DNA of 28,662 nucleotides from an uncultured Candidatus Saccharibacteria bacterium (GTDB lineage: Bacteria > Patescibacteriota > Minisyncoccia > JAHIHE01 > JAGLIN01). Positions within the stretch are counted from its first letter, which is position 1; every line of letters begins with the position of its first letter. This document shows positions 2,154 to 28,532 of the stretch, piece by piece. Under the pieces are notes generated by a model. That model searched no databases, was not told where the DNA came from, and saw only the letters and a program-made list of their open reading frames with translations. Location: NCBI GenBank assembly GCA_964490635.1, contig CAZBCK010000005.1:1-28662 (forward strand). Direction: 5' to 3'. Both the position numbers and the translations under genes were made by a program.

Positions 2154-3247
2154 CTAAAAAAACACGACCAAAAAGGGAGCCAGAAAAAACATTACGGCGA
2201 TATAGATCAGAGGAATCGCTCTTGAAGTCAGCGCGGTTTCGCCGATCTTTCTGGAAATGGAGATTGGAATAATCCTTAATGGATAGATAAAGACACTTCC
2301 AAATATATTAAATAGACAATGTGCCATTGCCACGGTAACGGCGACATAGCTTCCCAGACTAAAAGCGACTAAAAGCGCGGTGACGGTTGTACCGATATTT
2401 GCTCCGAGAACATACGGATAAATTGTCTCCAATTGCAAAACGCCGAGACCGACAAACGGAACGATCAGAGATGTTGTGACAGAGCTACTTTGCACAAACG
2501 CGGTGAGAAACAATCCAAAAGCAAAACTTCTTCCGGGACTTTTAAAAATTGAGTTGTGAAAAATTTCCTTAAATTCTGTTTTAGCAAGCGGTTTCAGTAT
2601 CCTAACAAAAGAAAAAAGTGAAAAAATAGCATCGCCAAAGATATCGCCGCAAGAAGAATAGTATTATCGCCAAGCGCGGTTTTAAAAAAGTCCGTTGCAG
2701 GACTTAAGATATAACTCAATGAATTTGTGAATGAACCTTTTGCGATGACATCCGACACCGATCCGTAATTGAAAATTGAATTGGTGATAAATAGCGATGA
2801 TTTTTCCAGCAAATGAAACTTTATTTCCAGCGGGAAAAATAACAGCACTGCGAAAACATTGTGAATATCGTGAAGAATCGCTGCTTCAAACGCTCTTTTG
2901 AATTCGCCTTTTTTGCGAATATGCGAAATTGAAACGATTGTGTTTGTAATAGTTGTTCCTATGTTCGCGCCAAGAATTATCGGTATTGCGCCAGTCAATG
3001 TTAAACAACCACTGGCCACCAAGCCAACTGTCAAAGATGTTGTGAAAGAAGAACTTTGCACAATACTTGTGACCAAAATCCCAATAAACAAAGTGACGAA
3101 CGGATCAACAGTCAGAGAAATAAGCTGATCTGAAAAATCTCCCCCGAACATTTCAAACGAAGAAGACATTAGTTTCATACTTAAAAGAAAAAGATACAAA
3201 AAGATCAAAGAGCCAACAATTTTCCTCCCTATTTCTTTTTTTGTCAT
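2154..3247 (-). pseudogene. Na+/phosphate cotransporter (NptA/NaPi-II-like) split by a 1-nt frameshift; pseudogene, phase-variable gene or sequencing error
   Basis: ORFs 2594-3247 and 2154-2513 each carry one of the two family repeats (QSSS...GANIGTT). Adding one base in the A-runs at 2607-2626 joins them into a ~364 aa frame (...LAMLFFSLFSFVRILKPLAKTEFKEIFHNSIFKSPGRSFAFGLFLTAFVQSSS...). Confidence 0.85.
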
Positions 3248-5030: not shown

Positions 5031-5597
5031 CTATTTTCTAGCTCTAAACAAATTTTTAAAATAAGTCCAGTGCCAAAAAGTATGAAATACTGAGATCATA
5101 AACATTGCGATGCCTGTTTCAACATGCAAAAATAAAATGTTTGGTAGCAATGGGATTGCTATGCCAAAATTAATTTTTATTACTAATAACACACCTGAGA
5201 TACCAGAAAACAAAAATGTAATTAGTAATAATACATTCCAAATCTTTCTGTGTTTCACAACACTAATAATTTTCTTCTTTGATAAAATATGTGTTATTGC
5301 GTAGAGAATAATCAGGAATAAGGAGATTGGGATAAGATGATAAGTCATTTTATTTTGCTTAGCTGTTGTTAAATTTTTATCATTTACCTCTGGCGTGTTT
5401 GCTGCTTGAGCAATAGTTCCATTTTCCGGAGCTGGTTGCGAACGATCACATATTTCATCATTATCTACATCAACATATCTGGTGCAATCTCCCGGAGCGG
5501 GACAATTCACTTCATTATGCGGACAATCATTCCATGCCAGAGTTGTTGCTGGAATTAAAATTGATAATATTAAAGTGAAGATTATTCTTTTCGTCAT
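5031..5597 (-). CDS. membrane protein: signal peptide, Cys-rich extracellular motif, C-terminal DUF4405-like His-containing helices
   Basis: 188 aa. Signal peptide ending TTLA, CPHNEVNCPAPGDCTRYVDVDNDEICD, then 3 TM helices with LHVETG...FHTFWHW. Confidence 0.7.
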   Translation of the reverse strand: MTKRIIFTLILSILIPATTLAWNDCPHNEVNCPAPGDCTRYVDVDNDEICDRSQPAPENGTIAQAANTPEVNDKNLTTAKQNKMTYHLIPISLFLIILYAITHILSKKKIISVVKHRKIWNVLLLITFLFSGISGVLLVIKINFGIAIPLLPNILFLHVETGIAMFMISVFHTFWHWTYFKNLFRARK

Positions 5598-5622
5598 AAT
5601 AATATCAATATATTTTTTGAAC

Positions 5623-6825
5623 CTATTCGCTTCTCAACGCATCTACCGGATCAAGACGGCTCGCTTTTAGTGCTGGGTAGAATCCAAAAAATACGCCGAC
5701 TAATACCGAAAAACCAAAACCCACAACTATACCCATCAAAGATGGCGCTAGTTTAATTAATTCTGCTAACGATGTTTCATTAACTACATAAATCAGACCA
5801 TTGCCGATTAAAATCCCAATTATACCGCCGATCATTGAAAGGATTATGGACTCAAGTAAAAATTGGCTTAAGATGTCTTCGCGTTTTCCCCCGATTGCTT
5901 TGGCAATACCTATTTCTTTGGTGCGTTCGGCAACAGTAGCAAACATAACATTCATAATTCCTATTCCGGACACCAATAAGGTAATTGCCGCAACTGCCGT
6001 TAAAAGCAATGACATAAGCGCCGCAGCATCTTGCGCCGCGCCAACCATTGCTCCCGCGTCCATTATTCTGAAATCATCATCTTGGCTATCTCTTAATTTA
6101 TGTTCGTCTCTCAAAGCAGATACTATTTCCTTTGACGCAATTTCAATATTTTCCACATCATCGGCTATTGTGAATATCATCATAAACGCCTTACCTCCTA
6201 AGATGCTTCTTTCTGCCGTACTATTTGGTAAAAAAATAGCATCATCTAAAGAACTTTTTCCAATATTTCTTCCAGTTTCTTTAACTGTTCCAATTACTTC
6301 AATGATTTTACCATTTATTTTTATATTTTGACCAACTATTTCATCTTCTTCTGAAAATAAAGATTCTACCACACTACTTCCTAAAATAGCCACTTTCTCA
6401 TTATTTATAACATCCTCTTCTGTTATTAGTCTTCCCTTGTCAATTTCCACATTAGACATTTTAAAATAATTGTTTTCAACTCCAAGCACACCAAAAGAAT
6501 CTTCTTCTGATTCAAATGAAACAGGCATATTACCTTGTATTACAGCTGTTGCATCTGAAATATGCGAACAATTTTCTATTATAACTTTGGAGTCCGTGGT
6601 TTTTAACTTTGAGCTTTCAGTTTTTCCTCTTGCTCCCATAACTATAATGGAATTCGCGGACAATCCTTGAAATTGATCATCCACCGCTTTTTGCGCGCCC
6701 TGTCCGATTGCGAACATGGCAATAACAGTTGAAACGCCAATAATTATACCCAGCATTGAAAGAAATGTTCTAGTCTTGTTCGCCAATAAAGACTCAAACG
6801 CCATTTTTATAATTTCTAATTTCAT
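5623..6825 (-). CDS. ABC exporter permease, MacB/FtsX family
   Basis: 400 aa. RTFLSMLGIIIGVSTVI, large extracytoplasmic domain, GIGIMNVMFATVAERTKEIGIAKAIG, FFGFYPALKASRLDPVDALRSE. Confidence 0.95.
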   Translation of the reverse strand: MKLEIIKMAFESLLANKTRTFLSMLGIIIGVSTVIAMFAIGQGAQKAVDDQFQGLSANSIIVMGARGKTESSKLKTTDSKVIIENCSHISDATAVIQGNMPVSFESEEDSFGVLGVENNYFKMSNVEIDKGRLITEEDVINNEKVAILGSSVVESLFSEEDEIVGQNIKINGKIIEVIGTVKETGRNIGKSSLDDAIFLPNSTAERSILGGKAFMMIFTIADDVENIEIASKEIVSALRDEHKLRDSQDDDFRIMDAGAMVGAAQDAAALMSLLLTAVAAITLLVSGIGIMNVMFATVAERTKEIGIAKAIGGKREDILSQFLLESIILSMIGGIIGILIGNGLIYVVNETSLAELIKLAPSLMGIVVGFGFSVLVGVFFGFYPALKASRLDPVDALRSE

Positions 6826-6826
6826 A

Positions 6827-7534
6827 CTAATAGTTTGAAGTTAATTCATAATTATTATCTATCACTTTTCCGTCCTGCATAAAAATTATCCGATCAGCAT
6901 ATTTCGCGACTTCCGCCGTATGTGTCACCATAATTATCGTTTTGTTTTTATTTTTTAAATCAGTAAACAGTTCCATTATTTCAAGTCCTGATCTTGAATC
7001 AAGCGCGCCAGTTGGTTCGTCCGCCAAAATTATATCAGGATCATTTATAAGAGATCTGCAAATAGAAACTCGCTGTTGCTGTCCACCGGAAAGCTCTGTC
7101 GGTTTGTGATCTGCTCGGTGTTCCATATTAACGCTTTTCATAAGCTTCATTGCTTTTTCTTCCCTGATCTTTTTTCCTTCTCCGGCATAAAGAGCCGGCA
7201 AAGCGATATTCTTTAAAGCAGAGAGGCGAGAGAACAAATTAAACTGCTGAAAAACAAAACCCATTTTTTTATTTCTAATAAAGGCCAAAGTATAATCATC
7301 CCTCACTTCCCCGATATTTTCTCCACCTAAAAAATATTCTCCCTCAGAAAGAGAATGAAGGCATCCAATCACATTTAATAAAGTTGTTTTTCCGCAACCG
7401 GATTCTCCCATTAACGCCACAAACTCTCCCTGCTTAATATCAAGATCAATACCATTGAGAACTGGAATTTCTTCATCATTGGAAAGATAATATGACTTAT
7501 GGACATTCTTCAGTTGTATTGCTGATTTTTCCAT
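6827..7534 (-). CDS. ABC exporter ATP-binding subunit, MacB/LolD family
   Basis: 235 aa. GESGCGKT, LSGGQQQR, ILADEPTGALD, MVTH. Confidence 0.95.
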   Translation of the reverse strand: MEKSAIQLKNVHKSYYLSNDEEIPVLNGIDLDIKQGEFVALMGESGCGKTTLLNVIGCLHSLSEGEYFLGGENIGEVRDDYTLAFIRNKKMGFVFQQFNLFSRLSALKNIALPALYAGEGKKIREEKAMKLMKSVNMEHRADHKPTELSGGQQQRVSICRSLINDPDIILADEPTGALDSRSGLEIMELFTDLKNKNKTIIMVTHTAEVAKYADRIIFMQDGKVIDNNYELTSNY

Positions 7535-7551
7535 ACTTTTTAATTTATAGG

Positions 7552-9459
7552 CTAGTATACTATTTTATCCCCGGCATTCAGTCCCTTTATAACTTCCACA
7601 TTTTTGCCGTCTGTAAATCCGGTTACTATCGGAATCCATTCTTCATTGCTATTCAACACAGAAGGAGAATCTTTAACATTTTTAACAGCGCCAACCGGAA
7701 TGACTAAGACATCTTTGGCTTCAGCTGTCACAAAATCAACAAACGCAGTCATACCTTCTCTTATTTGATTGTCTCCCTTGTCCATTATTATGATACGAAC
7801 TAGATATGTAACAATCCCGTTGTTATTTGTTTTTGAAGTAAGTGAAATAAAGCTTACTTCTCCGTCAAGCGTTAGGTCATCTAAGGCGTCAAAAGTAGCA
7901 TAAACAGTTTGTCCGATCTTAATTTTATTAATATCAGCTTCTTCAATATCCACTTCAATAAAAAGCGTATCGTTATTTATAATAACTGCCACCGGATCGC
8001 TATTGCTGTTGTCCACAATAATATCACCCGTTTTATAATTAAGCCGCGCTACCTCTCCGTCAATCGGAGATAAAATGGTTGCGTTTTCCAGTTCGTTCTG
8101 CGCTTTTTCAAGATTTACAGAAGCGCCGGTTAGACTTGAATTTGCAGAAGCTTTTTCTGCTTCTGTTAACGGAGATAGCAGATCGTTATAATCACGCTTA
8201 GCTTGTTTCAAATCCAACTCTCTATTCTCCACAGTGTCCTCTGAATTTTCAATATCTCGTTCATTATCAGCTTTAACATTTACCAAATCTCTCTTGGCAT
8301 TATCAACATCCCTCTTAGCATCTTCATAAGCAGTAATATAATCATCAAGACTGTCTTTGGCGTCATCTACCGCTTCAGTTTTTGTGTTCAGAGTTGTAAT
8401 TTTAGCATTAACAATTGACCTATTTGCGCTAATCGTTGAAATAAAAGCATTAAGTTCTGATTGTGAAAAAGTGGAGCAAGTGATTGTAGCTTCTAATGTC
8501 AAATTCATATAATATAAATGTTCTTCAAATTCCTGTAAAGCTAAAACTGCTTGATTCGCCGCTGCGTCAATCTCGCCATAAGGACTATTGAAATTTAATA
8601 GTACAACCAAAGAATCAAGTTTCCCTAATTCATTTTTAGATTTTGAATAACTGCCTTTTGCTTGATTTAATGAAGATGAGTCTTTTGCTCCTAAAAAATT
8701 TTCAAAAACATCGTTTATTTGTTTATCATCTACACCAACTATTTCGTCAGACTCTTTTAAAATTTTATCTAGACTTATATTGATTGATTTTATTGTGTCA
8801 ACTAAACTTTCATAAGCGTCGCTCACAGCTTCGCTACTTAGTTCGTCTCGATTGTCATCTAAATTATCTTTTGCGTCTTTCAAATTATTTTCAGTGTCGT
8901 AAATATTATCTTTAGCGTTTTGAATATTTTCTTCAGCAGATTGTTTAATGTTTTCTAAACTAATTTTAGCTTGATTTAAAGAAATTTCCGCTGAAGTAAT
9001 TCTATCTTTGGCGTCAGCGATCTGCTCTTCCGTTGCTCCATCCATCATTTGATTATAATTCGCTAAAGCTGACAAATAGTTTGAATAAGCAGTGCGGACA
9101 TTAAGTTCCAAAATCTCTGTTTTTACAGTAGCAACTTTATCGCCTTTTTTAATCTTATCGCCTTCTTTAATAAACACTTCTTTTACTTCCAGATTATTAC
9201 CGCTAATTGAAAATGATAGTTCAACCCCGTCTTCCGCAATGACCTTTCCGTCTGATTCAATAGAAATTTTTAAATCACCTTTTTTTACTGTCCATTCTTC
9301 TTGAGAAGCAGTCTCTTTTTCCGTGTCTTTTTTATTAAAAAAATAATAAGCAGAAGTTGAAACTAAAAAAATAATAATTAAAAAAAATATTTTCTTTTTA
9401 GTTATTTTAAATTTTCCAGCCCCTCTGGATTTTCTGCTTTCTTCTAAAATAGAACTCAT
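7552..9459 (-). CDS. membrane-fusion/adaptor protein (MacA/HlyD/YknX-like) with a very long coiled coil
   Basis: 635 aa. N-terminal TM, first lipoyl half (VKEVFIKEGDKIKKGDKVA), ~330 aa heptad-rich region, second half (ILSPIDGEV), beta-barrel (EADINKIKIGQ...GMTA), C-terminal GLNAGDKIV. Confidence 0.9.
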   Translation of the reverse strand: MSSILEESRKSRGAGKFKITKKKIFFLIIIFLVSTSAYYFFNKKDTEKETASQEEWTVKKGDLKISIESDGKVIAEDGVELSFSISGNNLEVKEVFIKEGDKIKKGDKVATVKTEILELNVRTAYSNYLSALANYNQMMDGATEEQIADAKDRITSAEISLNQAKISLENIKQSAEENIQNAKDNIYDTENNLKDAKDNLDDNRDELSSEAVSDAYESLVDTIKSINISLDKILKESDEIVGVDDKQINDVFENFLGAKDSSSLNQAKGSYSKSKNELGKLDSLVVLLNFNSPYGEIDAAANQAVLALQEFEEHLYYMNLTLEATITCSTFSQSELNAFISTISANRSIVNAKITTLNTKTEAVDDAKDSLDDYITAYEDAKRDVDNAKRDLVNVKADNERDIENSEDTVENRELDLKQAKRDYNDLLSPLTEAEKASANSSLTGASVNLEKAQNELENATILSPIDGEVARLNYKTGDIIVDNSNSDPVAVIINNDTLFIEVDIEEADINKIKIGQTVYATFDALDDLTLDGEVSFISLTSKTNNNGIVTYLVRIIIMDKGDNQIREGMTAFVDFVTAEAKDVLVIPVGAVKNVKDSPSVLNSNEEWIPIVTGFTDGKNVEVIKGLNAGDKIVY

Positions 9460-18536: not shown

Positions 18537-20897
18537 CTATTTTTCAATAGCATCAATTCTCGGAAATGGCATTGGGATCGGCATTGGTTCAGGATCTCCC
18601 CATATTGGCGATTTCGGTTTTTCCGCACTATTTAAGATCAGACTGTTTATATTTTCCAAATTGTCCGATTTGTTCATCTTTAAATATTTTCCGGAAAGCG
18701 TGTATAAAACATCTTTTATAAAGAGAGATCTTTTAACACTGCTTAATCCTCCATATCCACCCCAATAATTATCTTCGTTATTACCGTCTAAATGATCAAT
18801 CGTTCCTTGCAATTTAAATCCTTTTTTGTCTATATAAAAAACCGCGACGCCTTTAAAATATCTGTTGGGATTTGGAGTTATCGCTTCTTCCTCTTCAACG
18901 ATATCTTTGCCGGCACTATCCCGTATTATTAATTCTTCATAACTCACTGGGATTACCAATAAATTTTTCTCTTTGGAGAACAAGAACGCTTTATGATCAT
19001 ATAACGCAATTGAATCGCTTCTCTTGCCTCCCGAGATATAAGTGTCTATCTCTTTCGGGTCGCTAATATTGGAAACATCAAAAAGGGACAATTTCAATTT
19101 TGCGTTCCAGTCGCCGGAATCTTTACCGAGTCCGATCAAAGTCGTCTCGTCGTAAGGGTGCAAATAGCTGGAATAACCCGGAATTTTTAATTCACCAAGA
19201 ACTTTCGGATTTGTCGGGCTACTCAGATCAATTACAAACAACGGGTCAACTTGCTTAAATGTTACCAGATACGCCCTGTTTTGCATAAATCTGACAGAGT
19301 AAATTCTTTCACCTTTCGCCAGCTTTTCAACTTTTCCGACAACTTTCATTTTTTCATTAAGCACATAAAGATTGCTATAAGATTCTCGTTCTGATTCCGA
19401 CTGATCATCAAAGCTTGACCAGCTCCTGCTCTTCGTTGTTGCGATTCGGAAATAGCCTTCATCTTCATCCATTGAAAACTGATTTAGAATAACTCCGGGA
19501 ACTTCGCCCGTTGCTTTGTATCTTAAAATTCCGTCATCAATGGCAATTTTATGAATAATCGTTTTTTCCAAATCCTTGGAAATATCTTTATATTTTTGCT
19601 TTGCTTTTTCTTTCATTTCTTCTTCCAATTGTTCTTGTTCGTCTTCAGTCAATGATTCGCCATATGCTTCCATAATCATTTCTATCTTCATTATTTTTTC
19701 CTGTGGCGACAAAATATAGTTTTCCGCTTTCTCAATCTCTTTTATTCTTTCTCTGTTTCTCTCGCTCAATTTTGGCAAAATAATTTCTTTTACAATGCCC
19801 ATCATCAACTCTTCTTCACTAACACGCTTTACGAATGTAATGTAAATATTATCCCTGGAAACAAACATATTGTTCTGACTGCTGTCCAGCAAGTAGATGT
19901 CATTACCAATTTTTTTGTTTGCATTGGAAATATCAATTGTCGAAACAGTCATAAAATTATAGGAGTAATATGGAATATCAAAATAATAAATATTTGGGAA
20001 AGCGCGTCCCGTGCTGTTTTTACCTCCGCTGATGATTTTGCCGTTTTCAAGAATAATCGGAATTGGCGACTCGTCATCATCATAATAAGAATAGCAGCCA
20101 GAGTTTGAAGTAACAAAATAAATATAGTTTCCAATCATTCTTGAATTAGTATAACCGCCTTCAAAATCAACACTCCTTTCTTCTTTCGGATTACTTTTGT
20201 CGCTAATATCATAAACTTTGAAAAAAGTAAATTGACCGCTCTTTTTCCTCGGTAATATGTCTTTATAATTTTCATAAATATCATAACCCTGCCCATAAAC
20301 CGCCAATTTATTTCCGCTTAAATATATTCCGTTTGGATTTGAATCAAATTTAATTCTCGTTATTATCTCAGAATCGTCCGCGGGATACGCCTTGGCAATT
20401 ACAACATCGTTTCCCGAAATAGCGTAAACATATTTGCCGTCCGTTTTAATAATGTCTCCCTCGTCAACTCCCGCAACTTGGACATTAGTCGTTGAATAGT
20501 CATCGCCGCCACCCTTTCCATCCAGAGTTGGAGCTCCCGAAGAAACTTCAGCCGCCGCTCCCCACGCCTCTATTCCGAAACTGTCAGAAATCGCCTCTTT
20601 TCTTGTGATCCCGTTCAATGCTTGATCATACATACTATGCATACCAGAAGCGTTGGTCGCGCTTTCAGCTAAAAACTCTTTCAACTCACTATAATTACTG
20701 AACTCTTTCATCTTCGCCTCACCTGAATATCCACCGAGTCCGGGAAAATTAATTCTATCCCCATACTTCTCGCTAATTCTGGGAATCAGCGCCAGACTTC
20801 CGAGAACAACAATGGCAAGAAGAAGTATGGAAACAAGTAAAAGGGATATGGCACTCCCATCATCAAATTTGTTTGTTTTATTTTGTTTATTTTTCAT
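18537..20897 (-). CDS. membrane-anchored secreted beta-propeller protein (COG4880/Beta_propel-like)
   Basis: 786 aa. N-terminal TM, DYSTTNVQVAGVDEGDIIKTDGKYVY, VILNQFSMDE...FRIATT, GERIYSVRF...LVTFKQVDPLFVIDLS...GELKIPGYSSYLHP. Confidence 0.9.
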   Translation of the reverse strand: MKNKQNKTNKFDDGSAISLLLVSILLLAIVVLGSLALIPRISEKYGDRINFPGLGGYSGEAKMKEFSNYSELKEFLAESATNASGMHSMYDQALNGITRKEAISDSFGIEAWGAAAEVSSGAPTLDGKGGGDDYSTTNVQVAGVDEGDIIKTDGKYVYAISGNDVVIAKAYPADDSEIITRIKFDSNPNGIYLSGNKLAVYGQGYDIYENYKDILPRKKSGQFTFFKVYDISDKSNPKEERSVDFEGGYTNSRMIGNYIYFVTSNSGCYSYYDDDESPIPIILENGKIISGGKNSTGRAFPNIYYFDIPYYSYNFMTVSTIDISNANKKIGNDIYLLDSSQNNMFVSRDNIYITFVKRVSEEELMMGIVKEIILPKLSERNRERIKEIEKAENYILSPQEKIMKIEMIMEAYGESLTEDEQEQLEEEMKEKAKQKYKDISKDLEKTIIHKIAIDDGILRYKATGEVPGVILNQFSMDEDEGYFRIATTKSRSWSSFDDQSESERESYSNLYVLNEKMKVVGKVEKLAKGERIYSVRFMQNRAYLVTFKQVDPLFVIDLSSPTNPKVLGELKIPGYSSYLHPYDETTLIGLGKDSGDWNAKLKLSLFDVSNISDPKEIDTYISGGKRSDSIALYDHKAFLFSKEKNLLVIPVSYEELIIRDSAGKDIVEEEEAITPNPNRYFKGVAVFYIDKKGFKLQGTIDHLDGNNEDNYWGGYGGLSSVKRSLFIKDVLYTLSGKYLKMNKSDNLENINSLILNSAEKPKSPIWGDPEPMPIPMPFPRIDAIEK

Positions 20898-20931
20898 AAT
20901 ACTATAAATTAATAAATTATATTATTTCGCT

Positions 20932-21116
20932 GGAGTCCTTGCGTTGAACTAAATTCAGCATAAACTTCGCAAGGGTGAAATATCGCAAAGTATTATTTAG
21001 ACTCTGCTGATTTTCTTATAACTCTTCTCTTGAAAGAGGAACAATTGGTAAAATCAGCAATTCCTATCTATGAAAAGTTTATTAATATTTCACTGCCTGA
21101 CTTTCGTCAGGACTCC
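20932..21116. other. symmetric multi-stem intergenic element (REP doublet or ncRNA candidate)
   Basis: GGAGTCC/GGACTCC, GTGAAATAT/ATATTTCAC and TGCTGATTTT/AAAATCAGCA nested pairings, plus two side hairpins. Confidence 0.6.
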
Positions 21117-21132
21117 GACAGTATTTAACAAT

Positions 21133-21951
21133 TTATTTCAAATACTCTTTCAACGCTTCCTCCCATTTTCTCATCGGAGAAAGTTTTGCGTTAATCAGCA
21201 TAGAATAAGTCGGTCTTTTTGCCGGTGTTGGAAATTCTTCGGATTTTACGGGTTTTATATTTGGTTTTAAATCAACCAGTTCAAAAATCTTCAAAGCGAA
21301 TTCATACCAATTGCAAACGCCTGAGTTTGTAATATGGTAAATTCCAGACAATTGATGCGATTCAACCAGCTCCTTTACTTTTTCCGCCAGATCTTTCGCG
21401 TAAGTCGGGCTTCCAAATTGATCATTGACAATTTTTATATTTTTACCTTCATTCGCAAGCCGAAGCATTGTTTCCACAAAATTTTTCCCGTGTTTCCCAA
21501 AAAGCCATGAAGTTCTGATTAAATAATATCTTGGCTCAATATTTAAGATCAACTTTTCGCCAAGCGCTTTTGACTCGCCATACATATTTAGCGGCTGATA
21601 GGAATGGTTTTCTTTGTAGCCAAGATGATTCTTCCCATCAAAAACATAGTCAGTGCTAAAGTGAATAAGAATCGCATTAATCTCTTTGCAAACCGTCGCC
21701 AAGAATCCAACCGCATAACCGTTCACTTGATACGCCAAATCCTTATTTGACTCCGCGTCGTCAACGGCGGTATACGCTGCGGCATTGATCACCATATCCG
21801 GCTTTAACTCACCAATTTTTTTGGCAACTTCTTCTTTTTTGGAAATGTCAATTTGATTTCTGCCCCACAAAACAAGCTCGTTGTCTTTTTTGAAAACATC
21901 CACAAGTTCATGACCCAACATTCCTTTGTATCCGAGTATTAAAATTTTCAT
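21133..21951 (-). CDS. rfbD: dTDP-4-dehydrorhamnose reductase
   Basis: 272 aa. GYKGMLG, INAAAYTAVDDAE, IHFSTDYVFDG, YGESK (YxxxK), RTSWLFG, DQFGSPT, PAKRP. Confidence 0.95.
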   Translation of the reverse strand: MKILILGYKGMLGHELVDVFKKDNELVLWGRNQIDISKKEEVAKKIGELKPDMVINAAAYTAVDDAESNKDLAYQVNGYAVGFLATVCKEINAILIHFSTDYVFDGKNHLGYKENHSYQPLNMYGESKALGEKLILNIEPRYYLIRTSWLFGKHGKNFVETMLRLANEGKNIKIVNDQFGSPTYAKDLAEKVKELVESHQLSGIYHITNSGVCNWYEFALKIFELVDLKPNIKPVKSEEFPTPAKRPTYSMLINAKLSPMRKWEEALKEYLK

Positions 21952-22071: not shown

Positions 22072-23508
22072 TTACACCGAAATACTTTCTACCACCATTA
22101 TTATTATATAAGAAATCAAAATTATCGCGAGACCAATTACCGTATAAGTGACAACCTTCTTTGCTTTGGTTTGTCCGTCAGGATTTGAACCGGAAACCAT
22201 ATAATATACCCCGCCAAGAATAAGAACAAAAAGCGCCAACCCACCGGCTATTGTCAAAAGAAACTCAGCCCCTTCGGTAAACACTAAATCAATATCTTTA
22301 TCATATTTAAAATAATTACCATGATCAGTACTATGTCCCATACTAGGTACGCCTCCGCCAAGAGGCATACAGGCATTTAAAACACCATCCCATAGAAAAC
22401 CGCTATCGCACTCATAACAATCAGTTCCATCGCAACAATCTGTGCCTATTATTTTAGTAGCGTTTGCCAAAGATAAAAAACAGAGTCCGGTGGGACAAAA
22501 ATAAGTGCAGCCGCCCGCGCATGCTCCCGTGCAACATACTCCAAATCCATTATGGTTTATTATTTGAGACGATCCCGTAGCAACATCACAACTTCCTGCA
22601 AGTCCACAATTTGTACCGCCAAAATCTGCTACGCAATTACAGTCAGGATCACCGCCAGTGGCAACACACCCTATTCCATTACAACAACCATCAGCACCGC
22701 AATTACAAGCTACCGCCCCCACGCAATTTCCAGTAACAGGATCAATAATATTAGGATCTATGCAACAATGCCCGTTTACATCGCAAGCATCAACTCCTCC
22801 TCTACAATTAACTCCCGTAAACTCACATGCCAAACCGTTTGTACAACTAGTTCCTACACCTGCTACAGGACCTGCTATTTCATCACAGGCGGTATCTGTC
22901 GTCCCGCAGGCGGATTCAAGCTGACCATCACCATTTCCACTGCAATTTCCAGCATTATTAAGAAATATATTTGCTGCGTTTCCACAATTGCCATTTGCCA
23001 CTCTTTCAAATACTCCGGAACATTTAATACATTTGTCTTCGCTCGCGTCCCAAAATCCCGAATTGAAAAAAACTTCATTCATATCAACCGGATTTATTTT
23101 TCTTACGGTACAAATTCCTCCGTCAAACAATGCGGACGAAAGACCAACTGGACACCTGTCGTGATAACAGACCAATCTATCCGTTGCAGAAGCACTATCA
23201 GCGCAAGATGTTACCGGACCAATAAGATCATATTCAAACTCTGAAAACAATTCATTCATTATTGGTGAATTTATTGATTCTACCGTGCAAGTTCCAGTTC
23301 TACCGCTACAAGCCATACAGCATTCAAAACTTGAAAAGCAATCGGGAGTCATTGCTCCGTCAGTATAACATTCCAGCTCCGTGCTAGGCGTCATACATGG
23401 CGTAGGTATGGTTTTATTCCAAATTCCGGCTTGAGCGGTAAAACCCACAGAAAGAACGAATGAAAAAACAATCCCTGCTATTGATAGAATGCTATTTTTT
23501 GTTTTCAT
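22072..23508 (-). CDS. Cys-rich surface protein with a C-terminal VirB2/TrbC-like pilin module
   Basis: 478 aa. Signal peptide ending AQA, ~345 aa with about 44 Cys (hand count), then TM-(GGVYYMVSGSNPDGQTKAKK)-TM. Confidence 0.8.
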   Translation of the reverse strand: MKTKNSILSIAGIVFSFVLSVGFTAQAGIWNKTIPTPCMTPSTELECYTDGAMTPDCFSSFECCMACSGRTGTCTVESINSPIMNELFSEFEYDLIGPVTSCADSASATDRLVCYHDRCPVGLSSALFDGGICTVRKINPVDMNEVFFNSGFWDASEDKCIKCSGVFERVANGNCGNAANIFLNNAGNCSGNGDGQLESACGTTDTACDEIAGPVAGVGTSCTNGLACEFTGVNCRGGVDACDVNGHCCIDPNIIDPVTGNCVGAVACNCGADGCCNGIGCVATGGDPDCNCVADFGGTNCGLAGSCDVATGSSQIINHNGFGVCCTGACAGGCTYFCPTGLCFLSLANATKIIGTDCCDGTDCYECDSGFLWDGVLNACMPLGGGVPSMGHSTDHGNYFKYDKDIDLVFTEGAEFLLTIAGGLALFVLILGGVYYMVSGSNPDGQTKAKKVVTYTVIGLAIILISYIIIMVVESISV

Positions 23509-23630
23509 AAAAATAAATAAATATTACTTGTACAACAAAATCAAAATTTTCACGGCTGGACAAAAGTTTGACTAACTATCGTAAGTACGATATAAAAAAC
23601 CAAATACCACCTACATATCATCCTTGCGCG

Positions 23631-24704
23631 CTATTTTGTTTTATCGCGATAAACACTATTGTTTTTCTTTTCCCTTTTATAAATAATGAGTGCTGCTATT
23701 CCCGCAACTATCAAAGCTGCTATCACAAGAGCGTATATAAAAAATTTATTTTCCACCTTAGGCGAACAATCCTGCGGACAGTTCTGTTCATTCTCTCCTC
23801 CTTCACATTTACCGTCAACATTGCAAATTGAAACCGGAGGAATTTCCGCCGTTTTTTCAATATAGGAAAATTCTTTTTCTAATCTTGATTTCAAACCACC
23901 TTCTTCCAAAAAATTTACCCAGAGAGAGAAAGTGCCAACTTTGCTCGACTGAAAAGTGGCAAGATTATTTTCAAAAACTAAATATTTAATTTCACCGTCA
24001 GGATTCTTGATAGTTGACGAAATATCCAAATCAGCAGGAATAAAGTTTAGTTTAAGATAAATTAATTCGTCTTTATTAAATACTTTGTTTCTTTGAGAAC
24101 AGTTTTTATCCGCGCAAATGTCAACATCTGCCATAATAAGTTTTCCAACGCAATCAAAATCCGTTTCAGGGACACAATCAGGATCGCACAAACCATCTTC
24201 CATTCCATCGCAGTATTTATCAAAAGAGCCTGATGGACAATCTTCGGGACAAGTTTTATAATTTTCTCCCAAAACACATTTGCCGTTCCCGCAAATACCT
24301 CCTTTAAAATCCAACTCCATTAATTTTGCAACTTCAATTTCTTCTCCCTTTTCCAAAACGCAGACAGCGCACTCCGAAGAAAATGGGACAGCGGAACATT
24401 TCTCGGGATTATTTATGGTTTTTAATTCATATCCTTCTTTTTCACAGTAACCATATTCCTCGCCGCATTTGCCTGCTAAAAATTCTTGAGCCGGGCAACT
24501 TTCTGTTTCAGAAAACTTGCAAATACCCATCTGCCCCGCCTCGTTCTCCTTTATAATGTATTCATAACCCATTTCCTTGCAATAAACCGCGGAAGGATTT
24601 TTCAAAGCAAGCGCGGAAGACAAAGAAAAGGACATTACTATTGCAAAAATTACAACTCCCCATCCCATCTTTTTGCATATATTATTATTTTTTATTATTG
24701 TCAT
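23631..24704 (-). CDS. membrane-anchored Cys-rich protein with a DUF333-like domain and C.G.GEN..CP.DC repeats
   Basis: Start moved to ATG 24704 (or 24668) because the track start overlaps the upstream gene. NPSAVYCKEMGY...GICKF, CGNGKCVLGENYKTCPEDC, CNVDGKCEGGENEQNCPQDC, C-terminal TM with a basic tail. Confidence 0.8.
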   Translation of the reverse strand: MTIIKNNNICKKMGWGVVIFAIVMSFSLSSALALKNPSAVYCKEMGYEYIIKENEAGQMGICKFSETESCPAQEFLAGKCGEEYGYCEKEGYELKTINNPEKCSAVPFSSECAVCVLEKGEEIEVAKLMELDFKGGICGNGKCVLGENYKTCPEDCPSGSFDKYCDGMEDGLCDPDCVPETDFDCVGKLIMADVDICADKNCSQRNKVFNKDELIYLKLNFIPADLDISSTIKNPDGEIKYLVFENNLATFQSSKVGTFSLWVNFLEEGGLKSRLEKEFSYIEKTAEIPPVSICNVDGKCEGGENEQNCPQDCSPKVENKFFIYALVIAALIVAGIAALIIYKREKKNNSVYRDKTK

Positions 24705-24777
24705 ATTATTGTGTTTAACATTCTTACGCTTTATTATTATTTTAAGCAAAGCGGAAAATATAGTTACTTCTAAAATA

Positions 24778-26526
24778 TTACGGAGACAAAATTCCCTTTG
24801 CATAATCACCATATAAACCAGTTCCAAGCAAACATGTTCCATAATCTAAACTTTCATAACCATCGGAACATAAGGGAACAAAACCGCCCCAGCTGTTTTT
24901 AATAATCCAATATTGATTTACATTGTCGTAGCCAACCAAAACCACAGCATGATTAGGAAATCCGCCGCCACAAGTCCAGATAGCACAACCATCTTTATCG
25001 TTTCCGGGGGAAGGCGGTCCTCCTCCAACATTTATCTCCACATACAAAGGACCATTGTGGACTAAAGCATTCTGTAACTTCGCCTTATTAAACGGAGGAA
25101 GGGTCGTTATGTGGATATTACTACTAACTTTCCATAAATCAATTGGGCTAGCATCATCACATACGGCAGGACAAACACTATTCGCACCAAGATAACTATA
25201 ACAATTTTCGCTTGCTATTCCAGTATCTTTAATAAAGGAAAATGCACATGTCCCCCCTCCGCAATCTGAAAAAGAATGACAAGAAGAAACCAAATATTGT
25301 TCTGAAAGGTCTATATCCAAAGTTGAATTATTTTGCTCTATATTATATTTTGCTTCCATTGATCCAGCTGTAGCAAACGCCCAACAATCATTGCATATCT
25401 GATTTTTAACTGAGGTCATCCAATTTTGACCATTCACATTTCTCCAATCAAAAGAATCTGGAGGAATATGAATATCTATGCTGTCTGTGTCTATCGTGGC
25501 AGCGGCATCAGTAATTATTAAAGTAATTATATGATCCCCGACACTTAAGTTGTTTTTATTAAATGCTTGCAAATTTCCGATATTCCCGTCTAAATTAGAA
25601 TTCCAAGAATAAGTATATGGAGCTGTGCCACCAGCAGCCGAACTATCAAAAGAAACTAAATCTCCACTGCTAAAAGCGTCTTCATCTTTGGGAGAAATAA
25701 TTGACGCTGTTATTAAAGCAGCGGCATTAACCGTGACAACCACCGTATCCATATCTGTCATTCCATCATTATCTATAACTCGCAACTGCGCAGTATATGT
25801 TCCAGCTATCGTGTAAATATGCGTTGTTATTCCAGTAGCCGCATTATTCCAATCATAAGTTCCATCGCCATCAAAATCCCATTCATAATTAACTATTGAT
25901 CCGTCCAGATCTGAAGAAAAAGTGCTGCCGTCAAAATAAACGGTGTCAACATCTTTGTCAACCGTAGCTGAGGTTCCTACCGGACCCGGAGCGTTTCCCA
26001 CGCGAGCATCAGCTATGGGAGAAACGGCAACCGCAGGAGTGGTCACATTAAAATTAGCCTCCTCTATCCTTGGTCCTGCATCACTGAAAGGAGTGGTTAC
26101 TCCTGTTTGATAAATATTGCCCAAAGTATCAGAAGCGGTAATAAATACTTTATAATTTCCAACAGGCAGAGTAGCTGGAATCGTCAAAGTATTTCCATAG
26201 ACATCATTGCCCGCCGCGCCATCATTATGAGCGCCATCATCAAAAAGATTTATGTTAGCTACCGTTGTTCCTCCACCATTTTTTATTTGCGCCCTAACAT
26301 AAATTACTCCTGAAACATCAACTACCGTAGAGGAAATAACAACGCTACTGCCTCTATCTTGATTTCCCGGTACAACACTGGTTCCGCTTACAGTCGGCTC
26401 TGGCTGGTTAGCAACTTCAAAAGAAGCACTTTGGACAAAAGAGATAACTAAAACACCTATCAAGATACTACTTACAATTAATAATAATTTAGCTTTGAAT
26501 TGGCTTATTTTATTTGTTGTAAACAT
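24778..26526 (-). CDS. secreted papain-family (C1A) cysteine protease with N-terminal DDG-motif Ig-like domain and PKD domains
   Basis: 582 aa. Signal/anchor, LFDDGAHNDGAAGNDVYG, PKD (YEWDFDGDG...HIYTIAGTYTAQLRVID), PDSFDWR, QICNDCWAF (catalytic Cys), NHAVVLVGY (His), WIIKNSWG (Asn). Confidence 0.9.
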   Translation of the reverse strand: MFTTNKISQFKAKLLLIVSSILIGVLVISFVQSASFEVANQPEPTVSGTSVVPGNQDRGSSVVISSTVVDVSGVIYVRAQIKNGGGTTVANINLFDDGAHNDGAAGNDVYGNTLTIPATLPVGNYKVFITASDTLGNIYQTGVTTPFSDAGPRIEEANFNVTTPAVAVSPIADARVGNAPGPVGTSATVDKDVDTVYFDGSTFSSDLDGSIVNYEWDFDGDGTYDWNNAATGITTHIYTIAGTYTAQLRVIDNDGMTDMDTVVVTVNAAALITASIISPKDEDAFSSGDLVSFDSSAAGGTAPYTYSWNSNLDGNIGNLQAFNKNNLSVGDHIITLIITDAAATIDTDSIDIHIPPDSFDWRNVNGQNWMTSVKNQICNDCWAFATAGSMEAKYNIEQNNSTLDIDLSEQYLVSSCHSFSDCGGGTCAFSFIKDTGIASENCYSYLGANSVCPAVCDDASPIDLWKVSSNIHITTLPPFNKAKLQNALVHNGPLYVEINVGGGPPSPGNDKDGCAIWTCGGGFPNHAVVLVGYDNVNQYWIIKNSWGGFVPLCSDGYESLDYGTCLLGTGLYGDYAKGILSP

Positions 26527-26548
26527 AAATATTTTTAGTTATTTATTA

Positions 26549-27196
26549 TTAAATGTTTTCCGCTTCAGTACAATTCCCCGCTGTATCACAAGCATCAATA
26601 TCAACAAAGTAAGATCCTAAAGCAACAGACGTCCAAGTGCCTGTATAAAGACTATCCCCAGCCACTAAATCGCCATTCGTACCATCATCAACCAGAGTAA
26701 TAGTAGCGATATCAGGCGATTCGTCAGGATCCTGAATATGGGCTATTGTCGTCGCGGGATTTACTCCCGCAGGAGCCGTAACAGTGGCACTAATAGTAAA
26801 TACAGTTCCAACCGGACCCGAGGGCGGAACGACACTGGCACCGGAAATTGATATAGTTTTCTCTACAAGAATATTATGCATAGTTGATACTATAACATAG
26901 GGAACTAAAACTATTATAAGTCCGATAATAGCAGAAACTACCATTTTCTTTGCTTTTTTCTGCCCATCCGGACTTGATCCGGAAACTGCGTAATAGATGC
27001 CACCAAGAATAAGTATCAACAGAAAGATTCCTCCGATGATTTTCAAAAGATAAAGTGTTAGTTCGTTAACTCTGTCAACAACCGGTCTTTCTAGCCAGGA
27101 AAGCTCAGCGCCAAAAGCGGGAAAAGCGAAAAGCGAAATCGAAAAAATAACAAACGAGAAAAATAATTTCTTTGTGGTTATTTTACACATAGTCAT
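26549..27196 (-). CDS. VirB2/TrbC-like pilin module with a C-terminal DDG-motif Ig-like domain
   Basis: 215 aa. Signal peptide ending PAFG, TM-(GGIYYAVSGSSPDGQKKAKK)-TM, then LVDDGTNGDLVAGDSLYTG. Extended -10 TGTTATAAT at 27224-27232. Confidence 0.8.
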   Translation of the reverse strand: MTMCKITTKKLFFSFVIFSISLFAFPAFGAELSWLERPVVDRVNELTLYLLKIIGGIFLLILILGGIYYAVSGSSPDGQKKAKKMVVSAIIGLIIVLVPYVIVSTMHNILVEKTISISGASVVPPSGPVGTVFTISATVTAPAGVNPATTIAHIQDPDESPDIATITLVDDGTNGDLVAGDSLYTGTWTSVALGSYFVDIDACDTAGNCTEAENI

Positions 27197-27280
27197 AAAA
27201 GATAATAGAATTTTAACATTTTTATTATAACATATTATTTAAAATCAACATAGGTTAAAAATTAGGTTTCATATCCAAAT

Positions 27281-27304
27281 AAAAAGAACGAGCTGTCGCT
27301 CGTC
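27281..27304 (-). terminator. intrinsic terminator of the thioredoxin-fold gene
   Basis: ACGAGC-N4-GCTCGT stem followed by TCTTTTT on the minus strand. Confidence 0.7.
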
Positions 27305-27348
27305 CTCAATTACTTTATATTTTATTTTCAACGAGACCCATAGATCGT

Positions 27349-28455
27349 CTATCCGCAAGATCCGCTATCGTTTCCTCCTGCTTCTCCAAGACCAAATCCG
27401 GGAGATGGAGCAGCTGAAGACAGTTCCGCCTTGCATTCTTCCGGCTGTTCGCTAAACCCGGAACATATAATTTCAAGCAAGCTCTTTGAATCCCTTCCTG
27501 ACTGAACTTTTTTTCCGTTCACAACCAATCCCGGAGATCCCGCAATCGCGTATTTTTCATTATCTTCTTTATAAACATCAAAAATAGGAAATTTTCCGTT
27601 AAGCCAAGTGTCTTTGTTGTTGAAACTTTCCATAACTTTATATTCTTTGTCTGTAGTCGCTACACAGCTTGCCAATTTTGAGGAATTGATTCCAATTTCC
27701 GCAACACATTTATCTGATTCATCCGCTTCAAGAAAACAATTCAGATAATTTTCCAGTTTGCCCTGTTCTTCTTTTTGAATGCAATATTGCCTCAGCTCTT
27801 CCTGCAATTCTTTTTCACCGTGCATAGAGTAAGTACAAAACTTTAACTCAAAATCAATTTTATCACCCAGCGTTTTAAGAACTGGCAATATTCCTTTTTC
27901 AACTTGAGTACCGTAAGGACAATGGCTCATCACAAAAAGTTCAACTACCGGTTTGTCATTTTTTTCCATCTCTAACACTTCTTTTTCCTTTTCAGCTTTT
28001 GCTTTTTTTTCCGCTTCGCGTTTTTGTTTTTCCATTTCCTCAATATCTATAACTTGCGGAAAGAATTTTTTCCCGTCTTTTGTAAGATATGAATTGATTG
28101 GTTCTTGTCCGCTACCAATATCAACAACCACTTTGTATAAGTCTCCTTCTTCAACAAATTCTTTAATCGTTACTTGGCTGCCCTGTGGCATAAGATTCTC
28201 GTTGATAAACGCTTCAATTTTACTTTTATTTTCTTCAGCTGACAAAACTTTTCCTTCCCCTTTCTTTGTGCCAACATCGTTTTTTTGCAGAAAAAACAGC
28301 GCGGAGGCAATTAGCACAAGCGCGAGCAACCCGACAATAAGCATTTTCTTGCTTTTAGCTGTCTTAGACGCAACATATTTTCCTTCCGTTGTTTCCGGCG
28401 TTTTAATTTCTTCATCCCCAAATTTTTTGGCGGTATCGTTTTTTTGTTCTTCCAT
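27349..28455 (-). CDS. membrane-anchored thioredoxin-fold protein (DsbC-N-like plus GILT/DsbA-like domain, monothiol CPYG)
   Basis: 368 aa. One TM, SYLTKDGKKFF (DsbC-N-like), VELFVMSHCPYG, MHGEKE...YCI, AGSP (cis-Pro loop-like) GLVVNG. Confidence 0.8.
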   Translation of the reverse strand: MEEQKNDTAKKFGDEEIKTPETTEGKYVASKTAKSKKMLIVGLLALVLIASALFFLQKNDVGTKKGEGKVLSAEENKSKIEAFINENLMPQGSQVTIKEFVEEGDLYKVVVDIGSGQEPINSYLTKDGKKFFPQVIDIEEMEKQKREAEKKAKAEKEKEVLEMEKNDKPVVELFVMSHCPYGTQVEKGILPVLKTLGDKIDFELKFCTYSMHGEKELQEELRQYCIQKEEQGKLENYLNCFLEADESDKCVAEIGINSSKLASCVATTDKEYKVMESFNNKDTWLNGKFPIFDVYKEDNEKYAIAGSPGLVVNGKKVQSGRDSKSLLEIICSGFSEQPEECKAELSSAAPSPGFGLGEAGGNDSGSCG

Positions 28456-28504: not shown

Positions 28505-28532
28505 ATTATAGCATATAATTTTTTTTAGTCAA
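28505..28532 (-). promoter_or_regulatory. strong sigma70 promoter of the thioredoxin-fold gene
   Basis: TTGACT (28532-28527), 16 nt spacer, TGn-TATAAT (28510-28505). The spacer contains an 8-nt homopolymer. Confidence 0.7.

Follow-up and report, generated by a model that had tools for sequence, protein, structure and literature searches.

Five co-oriented genes, designated here A–E, occupy one end of contig CAZBCK010000005.1 from an uncultured Candidatus Saccharibacteria bacterium (GCA_964490635.1), where four of them, B–E, bring together type IV secretion system (T4SS) pilin modules, a papain-family protease and a DUF333 protein. The 28,662 nucleotides (nt) analysed, called here the window, make up nearly the whole of this 29,186-bp European Nucleotide Archive (ENA) metagenome contig, and the five minus-strand open reading frames (ORFs) lie between positions 22072 and 28455, coordinates that were reproduced here (Table 1). 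Consistent with an initial annotation, which described five exported genes of common orientation, the ORFs and a hydrophobic-segment analysis reveal an N-terminal hydrophobic signal or anchor in all five proteins, which are thus exported or membrane-anchored. Profile searches also reproduce the domains proposed at that stage, namely two pilin modules, two copies of a domain X, PKD, Peptidase_C1, DUF333 and a 44-Cys domain. Genes B–E are separated by gaps of 22 nt (B–C), about 73 nt (C–D) and 122 nt (D–E), none of which holds a terminator-like hairpin, and they are likely to be co-transcribed; a search for public sequencing runs containing the locus returned none. The candidate B–E promoter was not listed by the promoter scan, being an extended -10 element without a properly spaced -35.

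Table 1. Features of the locus in window coordinates, with positions in the encoded protein where these apply (aa, amino acids; TM, transmembrane; Ig, immunoglobulin; CAX, choice-of-anchor X).
Feature	Window (nt)	Protein (aa)	Strand	Description
Gene A	27349..28455		−	368 aa; N-terminal TM anchor, weakly GILT/DsbA-like thioredoxin-fold domain
Promoter-like site upstream of A	28505..28532		−	TTGACT, 16 nt, TG-n-TATAAT (TGcTATAAT); consensus match only
Intrinsic-terminator-like hairpin	27284..27307		−	10-bp stem and T-run, 42 nt past the A stop; consensus match only
Extended -10 element TGTTATAAT	27224..27232		−	27 nt upstream of the gene B ATG; candidate B–E promoter, from sequence inspection
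Gene B	26549..27196		−	215 aa; signal peptide, pilin hairpin, C-terminal CAX
B signal peptide		1-29	−
B-type VirB2-like pilin hairpin	26885-27076	~41-104	−	PF18895
B CAX Ig-like domain	26552-26851	116-215	−	NF041940
Gene C	24778..26526		−	582 aa; TM anchor, CAX-like, PKD, Ig-like, papain C1A
C single N-terminal TM anchor		14-32	−	Aligns with pilin helix 2
C CAX-like domain		~44-140	−
C PKD domain		184-266	−	PKD_4, 50.9 bits
C second Ig-like domain		~270-352	−
C papain-family C1A catalytic domain	24781-25461	356-582	−	Peptidase_C1 PF00112, 113 bits
Gene D	23631..24704		−	357 aa from likely start MTIIKNNNICKKMGWGVV...; ORF extends to 24842; signal peptide, CGxGxC...CPxDC Cys motifs
D DUF333, second DUF333-like repeat, conserved 'EVEVxKLMxL' segment		35-131	−
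D Ig-like beta-sandwich		~190-285	−
D TM		323-341	−	Followed by basic tail
Gene E	22072..23508		−	478 aa; signal peptide, Cys-rich ectodomain, C-terminal pilin hairpin
E 44-Cys ectodomain	22354-23427	~28-385	−
E-type VirB2-like hairpin and conserved pre-helix segment	22075-22323	396-478	−	PF18895

Genes B and E encode a signal peptide and then a pair of hydrophobic helices with a short basic loop (SGSxPDGQxKAKK) between them, the hydrophobic segments spanning residues 11-29, 46-64 and 85-103 of B and residues 7-25, 416-434 and 455-473 of E. The two-TM module scores as a pilin, as had been proposed: B matches T4SS_pilin (PF18895) in profile searches with 34.8 bits, above the gathering threshold (GA) of 26.6, and the E module, which falls just short of it, is 61% identical to that of B (E=2e-16) and has family relatives that reach 29.6-30.9 bits. 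Two further proteins recovered in the searches, P0048 and P0209, match TrbC (PF04956) too. The C-terminal domain of B scores 37.3 bits against the CAX model NF041940 (cutoff 25), and B orthologues (cluster representative P0284) are 63% identical over their full length on contig L008 and 74% identical on contig L003, where the similarity is confined to the pilin part. Given the topology of VirB2-type hairpins, the C-terminal domain of B and the N-terminal domain of E should lie outside the cell. These extra domains are large, making B (215 aa) and E (478 aa) bigger than small stand-alone pilin subunits of about 70-130 aa. No further pilin gene was found elsewhere in the window, and an origin of the two modules by recent duplication or gene conversion within the locus was rejected, there being no long nucleotide repeats; their nucleotide identity is about 65%, as estimated from the alignment.

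The pilin module is much more conserved than the ectodomains that it carries. Over their last ~85 residues, E-family proteins are ~80% identical even where their ectodomains are unrelated (Cys-rich, beta-helix or Ig repeats), and invariant columns of the alignment cluster at aa 396-464. The conserved stretch comprises a pre-helix segment (HGNYFKYDKDI.LVFTEGAEFLL), a Gly-rich helix 1, the loop SGSNPDGQTKAKK and helix 2. A constraint of this kind argues for specific interactions, by polymerisation or by recognition through an assembly machine, rather than for a passive anchor; actual incorporation of B and E into a pilus is nonetheless doubtful. With HMMER, a full scan of 1.84 billion representatives returned 4453 relatives of the module, and among the best 150 of these 14 are stand-alone, 22 bear an N-terminal ectodomain and 3, among them a B orthologue and a pilin-papain fusion, a C-terminal extension. 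A further 109 of the best 150 contain 2-12 pilin modules per polypeptide. Such tandem T4SS_pilin polypeptides, all encoded outside the window (P0209, with 7 modules and 159 bits, P0212, P0216, P0225, P0233 and others), could be 'poly-pilin' proteins, polyproteins or polytopic assemblies, and a limited literature search found no description of them.

Gene C has the features expected of a catalytically intact papain-family protease. In alignments its four catalytic residues (Gln, Cys, His and Asn) match those of cathepsins C and K (and S), the motifs KNQ.C, NDCWAF, NHAV and KNSWG aligning with the catalytic motifs of cathepsin C, and C1A cathepsins are its best matches both by sequence (E 1e-20 to 1e-15) and by Foldseek (E about 1e-16 to 1e-17). 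The I29 propeptide family has no match in C, whose Ig-like domain is immediately followed by the mature N-terminus ('...PPDSFDWRN').

The N-terminal part of C resembles B. Residues 79-208 of B align with residues 9-137 of C (35% identity, E=1e-8), TM segment included; this alignment is what supports the CAX copy of C, which misses the NF041940 model. The anchor of C is aligned with helix 2 of B on contigs L008 and L009 as well, a correspondence that escaped the initial annotation, and C thus looks like a B-type gene that has lost its signal peptide and helix 1 and acquired PKD and papain domains. On L008 and L009 the orthologues of C are 63-75% identical to it. The CAX domain of B shares 54-63% identity with its orthologues and 35% with its paralogue in C, and both CAX copies, in the pilin protein and in the protease, are kept in four other loci, indicating that the duplication is old and maintained. 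Such a duplicated domain fits an interaction between B and C or a role in recruitment.

Gene D supplies the partner that was overlooked at first. The protein matches DUF333 (PF03891) with 48 bits (GA 25), a degenerate second repeat follows, and 22 Cys are counted from Met-59 of the ORF. Among 75 homologues of D that were found, the D-like proteins share a ~170-aa unit made of DUF333, a further DUF333-like repeat and an 'EVEVxxLMxL' segment that hardly varies, and they are membrane-anchored in the CPR (candidate phyla radiation) loci checked. A D homologue adjoins a C1 protease gene in L002, L003 and L006-L014, the DUF333 gene lying 3' of the protease gene in every related locus: no other partner of the protease is as constant as the DUF333 protein. 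The two are also joined in cis. DUF333 is carried by 15 of the 120 listed homologues of C, and in all nine fusions scanned it is N-terminal (aa 20-108), with the C1 domain beginning at aa 141-183, which is the position of a propeptide. These fusions occur in homologues labelled Chloroflexi and Actinobacteria, and the I29 propeptide family is absent from the precomputed Pfam lists of the same 120 homologues. AlphaFold2 (AF2) models of D and of the natural DUF333-C1 fusion P0080 are confident, with predicted local distance difference test (pLDDT) values of 85.8 and 78.6, respectively, both parts of the fusion exceeding 90. The predicted template modelling (pTM) score of 0.62 for P0080, compared with the ~0.5 possible for the protease domain alone, is a weak hint of fixed interdomain packing. 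Foldseek matches to the D model apparently concern its Ig-like domain only, and those to the fusion model only the protease part. On this domain architecture we tentatively place D, at slightly less than even odds, as the cognate partner of these proteases that lack a propeptide, its likeliest role being that of an inhibitor or of a trans-acting prodomain. The DUF333 literature yielded nothing functional, and a paper on papain classification mentions DUF3335 instead.

Comparison with related loci links these proteins further. Pilin, papain protease and DUF333 genes co-occur in seven other contigs (L002, L003, L006, L007, L008, L009 and L014); the parts of B–E therefore hold together in the neighbourhood comparison that the initial annotation had called for, and gene A, which it had included, does not. 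L008 and L009, from two other ENA assemblies, have the same gene order as the window, with identities of 62-63% for B including its CAX domain, 58% for D over its full length and 80% for the pilin module of E, the ectodomain of which is replaced outright by a non-homologous one. A DUF6922 and AbiEii toxin-antitoxin pair lies between D and the E-type pilin gene on both contigs (L008 5166-6034, L009 3845-4713). The order on L006 and L007 is pilin-PKD-CAX, CAX-PKD-C1 papain and DUF333, and on L014 two small pilins precede a pilin-papain fusion and DUF333. On L002 and L003 a Cys-rich ectodomain, a pilin hairpin and a papain domain are fused in one 728-744-aa protein (P0006, P0012), the gene for which occupies the same chromosomal position next to rmlD and is followed by that of a 184-185-aa DUF333 protein. 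P0221 and P0048 are shorter pilin and papain fusions, and P0252 (295 aa) unites a Cys-rich N-terminus with a pilin and, at its C-terminus, a CAX domain; in the fused relatives both decorations are always on the outer side of the hairpin. Parts that are separate in the window and fused in relatives indicate that pilin, protease, Cys-rich domain and CAX domain form one functional unit, and these gene fusions constitute strong evidence, by comparative sequence analysis, for their joint function. The modular pilin-protease surface system first proposed is thus partly supported, as regards the link between pilin, protease and Cys-rich domain, and loses oxidoreductase A.

Two observations on the fused loci concern additional Cys-rich parts. 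A small conserved Cys module, CYWDCGNWSACAAGTQTRVCTETCG, joins the hairpin to the protease in P0006 (aa ~478-530), P0012 and P0221; its identification as a thrombospondin repeat, suggested by its appearance, was set aside as it has no Pfam match. L002 also encodes, at 5306-7063, a 585-aa protein whose large Cys-rich ectodomain is of another kind and whose C-terminal pilin module belongs to a separate subtype. GIY-YIG and small ORFs lie between its gene and the fused pilin-protease gene ~1.5 kb downstream.

Divergence within the locus is uneven. The flanking genes are 86-90% (RmlD) and 74% (Beta_propel) identical to those of two Patescibacteria metagenome-assembled genomes (MAGs), GCA_048632755.1 and GCA_034659355.1, which carry L002 and L003, and the source organism is therefore a member of the CPR. 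The cassette proteins are 39-53% identical to those of L002 and L003, and differently fused, compared with 74-90% for flanking genes. Fast divergence and ectodomain swapping are typical of surface proteins under diversifying selection and fit a role in host contact. Exchange of the E ectodomain between orthologous loci is as would be expected for a binding or adhesin module.

Taken together, the data lead us to a reading, held at a probability of about 0.55, in which B, C, D and E constitute a cassette conserved among Patescibacteria, a VirB2-like pilin array of a specialised kind that mounts protease and binding domains on the cell surface. In the mechanism we infer, the B-type and E-type hairpins would insert in the membrane with both ends outside and would anchor or scaffold extracellular domains, the CAX Ig domain on B and the variable 44-Cys ectodomain on E. 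The papain-family protease of C would stand on its Ig/PKD stalk in the same membrane, held by the anchor that aligns with pilin helix 2, and would probably associate with B, since both carry the same CAX domain. D, anchored alongside through its TM segment and bearing tandem DUF333 repeats, may act as an inhibitor or trans prodomain that restrains the propeptide-less protease on the surface of the producer. The whole would work on the cell surface, where it meets a host cell, as a device for proteolysis and binding, its target presumably being the host, and would possibly be borne on a pilus if a T4SS encoded elsewhere polymerises the subunits.

Several points weigh against this reading. No VirB4, VirD4 or relaxase family, as the initial annotation had stated, and no other T4SS machinery family is matched by the scanned window ORFs of at least 90 aa, and pilus assembly is unsupported at the locus because the 29-kb contig has no T4SS machinery gene. 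E scores 26.0 bits against PF18895, 0.6 below the GA, and the similarity between the anchor of C and pilin helix 2 could be partly compositional. The inhibitor role proposed for D is drawn from domain architecture, and DUF333 has no structural match in the PDB, sequence searches of which with D and with a 72-sequence D profile gave no match. The cassette is also rare: an alignment of the E family against 185,579 species-representative genomes retrieved one related locus, in the same MAG as L003, and a scan of Joint Genome Institute (JGI) metagenome contigs retrieved none.

A different use of the same parts would make the protease a contact-dependent antagonistic or host-killing effector, the pilin its delivery module and the membrane-anchored DUF333 protein its immunity factor. 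The protease gene is indeed always followed by that of a small exported partner, which is membrane-anchored on the producer, and extensive module recombination and fast divergence are in keeping with such a pair. The cis position of DUF333, N-terminal to the protease in Chloroflexi- and Actinobacteria-labelled homologues, better fits a prodomain, however, and delivery machinery is not found nearby; we regard this alternative as unlikely, while noting that it overlaps with the cassette model in that both need DUF333 to inhibit the protease.

The hairpins might instead be ordinary, non-polymerising anchors, the protease a nutritional exoprotease digesting protein from the environment or released by the host for an amino-acid auxotroph, and E and B unrelated surface proteins. 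This would agree with the lack of T4SS genes in the window, with the occurrence of protease-DUF333 pairs free of pilins on archaeon-labelled contigs, and with the crowding that large ectodomains on every subunit would be expected to cause in a pilus. It is quite unlikely in view of the pilin modules, which stay ~80% identical despite ectodomain exchange, the conserved parts including the pre-helix segment, the Gly-rich helix 1 and the loop SGSNPDGQxKAKK. A passive anchor would not call for so much constraint. Both the B-type and the E-type module are moreover retained, as distinct forms, across loci, and stand-alone pilins occur in the same arrays.

The initial annotation had treated the locus as a five-gene system, with A as a dedicated Dsb/GILT-like disulfide catalyst folding its Cys-rich parts. 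A is adjacent, co-oriented and exported, and there is no shortage of candidate substrates, the 44 Cys of E and 22 of D all being potentially paired. Its claim to be a catalyst was overstated: A scores 15.4 bits against GILT (GA 22.4), its thioredoxin-type and NCBIfam matches are all sub-threshold, the latter far below their cutoffs, and in an alignment with Staphylococcus aureus DsbA (3bci; E=0.3) the CPYC of DsbA falls on CPYG in A, which has no CxxC and hence no second Cys at the active-site position. Monothiol thioredoxin-fold proteins of the CxxS type are able to isomerise disulfides, and the nine Cys of A would leave one free thiol; A may have a monothiol isomerase-type role. No homologue of A occurs in related loci L002-L013. 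The strong promoter-like site in front of A has an extended -10 and 11 of 12 consensus matches, and the terminator-like hairpin ahead of B would separate A from B–E. The missing homologues, the own promoter- and terminator-like sites, the weak fold assignment and the CPYG motif together indicate that A is a neighbour rather than a component, probably outside the B–E cassette, and make the five-gene model improbable.

Finally, maturation of pilins by the papain domain, through leader or ectodomain cleavage or as a transpeptidase in the manner of C39 or sortase-type cysteine peptidases, is highly improbable: the protease does lie inside pilin arrays, sometimes fused to a pilin, and gives weak Peptidase_C39_2 cross-matches (P0221, 27 bits against a GA of 24), but such matches are expected anyway within clan CA, the best matches are C1A cathepsins, the same protease-DUF333 pair is found free of pilins and the ~300-aa Ig/PKD stalk of C suggests distant substrates.

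The pilin-free pairs just mentioned, each an Ig-papain protease with a DUF333 protein, lie on contigs L010/L011 and L012/L013, named Aenigmatarchaeota or Altiarchaeota by their sources and carrying archaeal-type neighbours (HMG-CoA reductase, Lon_C, NFACT-R_1). Identity to the window proteins reaches 60% for D and is 42% for the protease, which suggests gene exchange between CPR bacteria and archaea. A broader proposal can be built on this, in which VirB2-like pilins serve CPR bacteria as a modular scaffold taking enzymes and binding domains to the host surface (an 'enzymatic pilus'), DUF333 is an unrecognised class of inhibitor or prodomain for prokaryotic C1 proteases, and the protease-DUF333 pair is a tool of episymbionts exchanged between CPR and DPANN-type archaea; as a conjunction it is rather unlikely. 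Its parts would matter. The distribution of the pair suggests that the two great groups of ultra-small episymbionts have exchanged genes, and DUF333, a widespread domain of unknown function, gains a testable role as partner of prokaryotic papain-like proteases. The locus itself is real, conserved and more structured than was first recognised; its mechanism is inferential, and the disulfide-catalyst part is to be dropped.

Directly downstream of E, at window positions 18537-21951 on the same minus strand, lie rmlD (RmlD_sub_bind, 329 bits) and the gene for a 786-aa Beta_propel protein (518 bits), a position kept in L002 and L003. No terminator-like site is found between E and rmlD, and the linkage is probably a sign of close kinship, not of a shared function. 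At window positions 2154-3247 the Na_Pi_cotrans domain is matched in parts by two adjacent minus-strand ORFs (217 and 119 aa), which may represent a split or frameshifted Na+/Pi cotransporter gene. At 5031-9459, again on the minus strand, genes for an HlyD-like protein (635 aa), an ABC ATPase and a MacB/FtsX permease form an operon, and after it comes the gene for a 188-aa protein with an exported Cys-rich N-terminus, several TM helices and no family match.

Among known systems, C1A proteases with an I29 propeptide (cathepsins L, K and S, cathepsin C) share with C a catalytic domain built around Gln, Cys, His and Asn. C differs from them in having no I29 domain and in adding an N-terminal membrane anchor and a CAX/PKD stalk; where fused relatives have DUF333 in the position of a propeptide, the window encodes it in a membrane protein of its own. 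Bactericidal T4SS effector/immunity pairs and polymorphic toxins likewise combine an enzyme gene with a small exported partner, modular swapping, delivery fusions and fast divergence, as the cassette does. The cassette, known from sequence alone, differs in having no XVIPCD-type signal, no machinery nearby and a partner that is also fused N-terminally in cis. Pam pili are CPR-specific surface filaments for host contact that contain Ig-like domains and, unlike the cassette, assemble by donor-strand exchange with chaperone-usher-like factors (bioRxiv 10.64898/2026.03.03.709456). A link to them was rejected, the PamR match in the PKD region of C being at chance level (E=0.065, 12.1 bits against a cutoff of 300) and the systems unrelated.

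The closest likeness is with the VirB2-like pilin arrays of Patescibacteria. Little is understood of the way in which CPR bacteria hold on to their hosts and exploit them, and T4SS and pilin arrays are essential in the sole genetic system studied, where their function is obscure. Arrays of 2-11 such genes occur in 383 Patescibacteria assemblies (PMC12102498), and VirB2-like pilins are essential in Southlakia epibionticum (PMC10633639). In the searched text of the two papers, neither pilins fused to enzymes or to adhesin-like ectodomains nor a protease-DUF333 module within an array is described. The cassette resembles these arrays in belonging to the PF18895 family, in having divergent paralogues in tandem or separated by non-pilin genes, and in being chromosomal, relaxase-free and found in CPR bacteria. 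It differs in that no virB4 lies within 28 kb, its pilins carry extracellular domains of 100-380 aa, and papain and DUF333 genes lie inside it. By joining pilins to a protease and to swappable ectodomains, the cassette offers a concrete hypothesis on the cargo of some CPR pilins.

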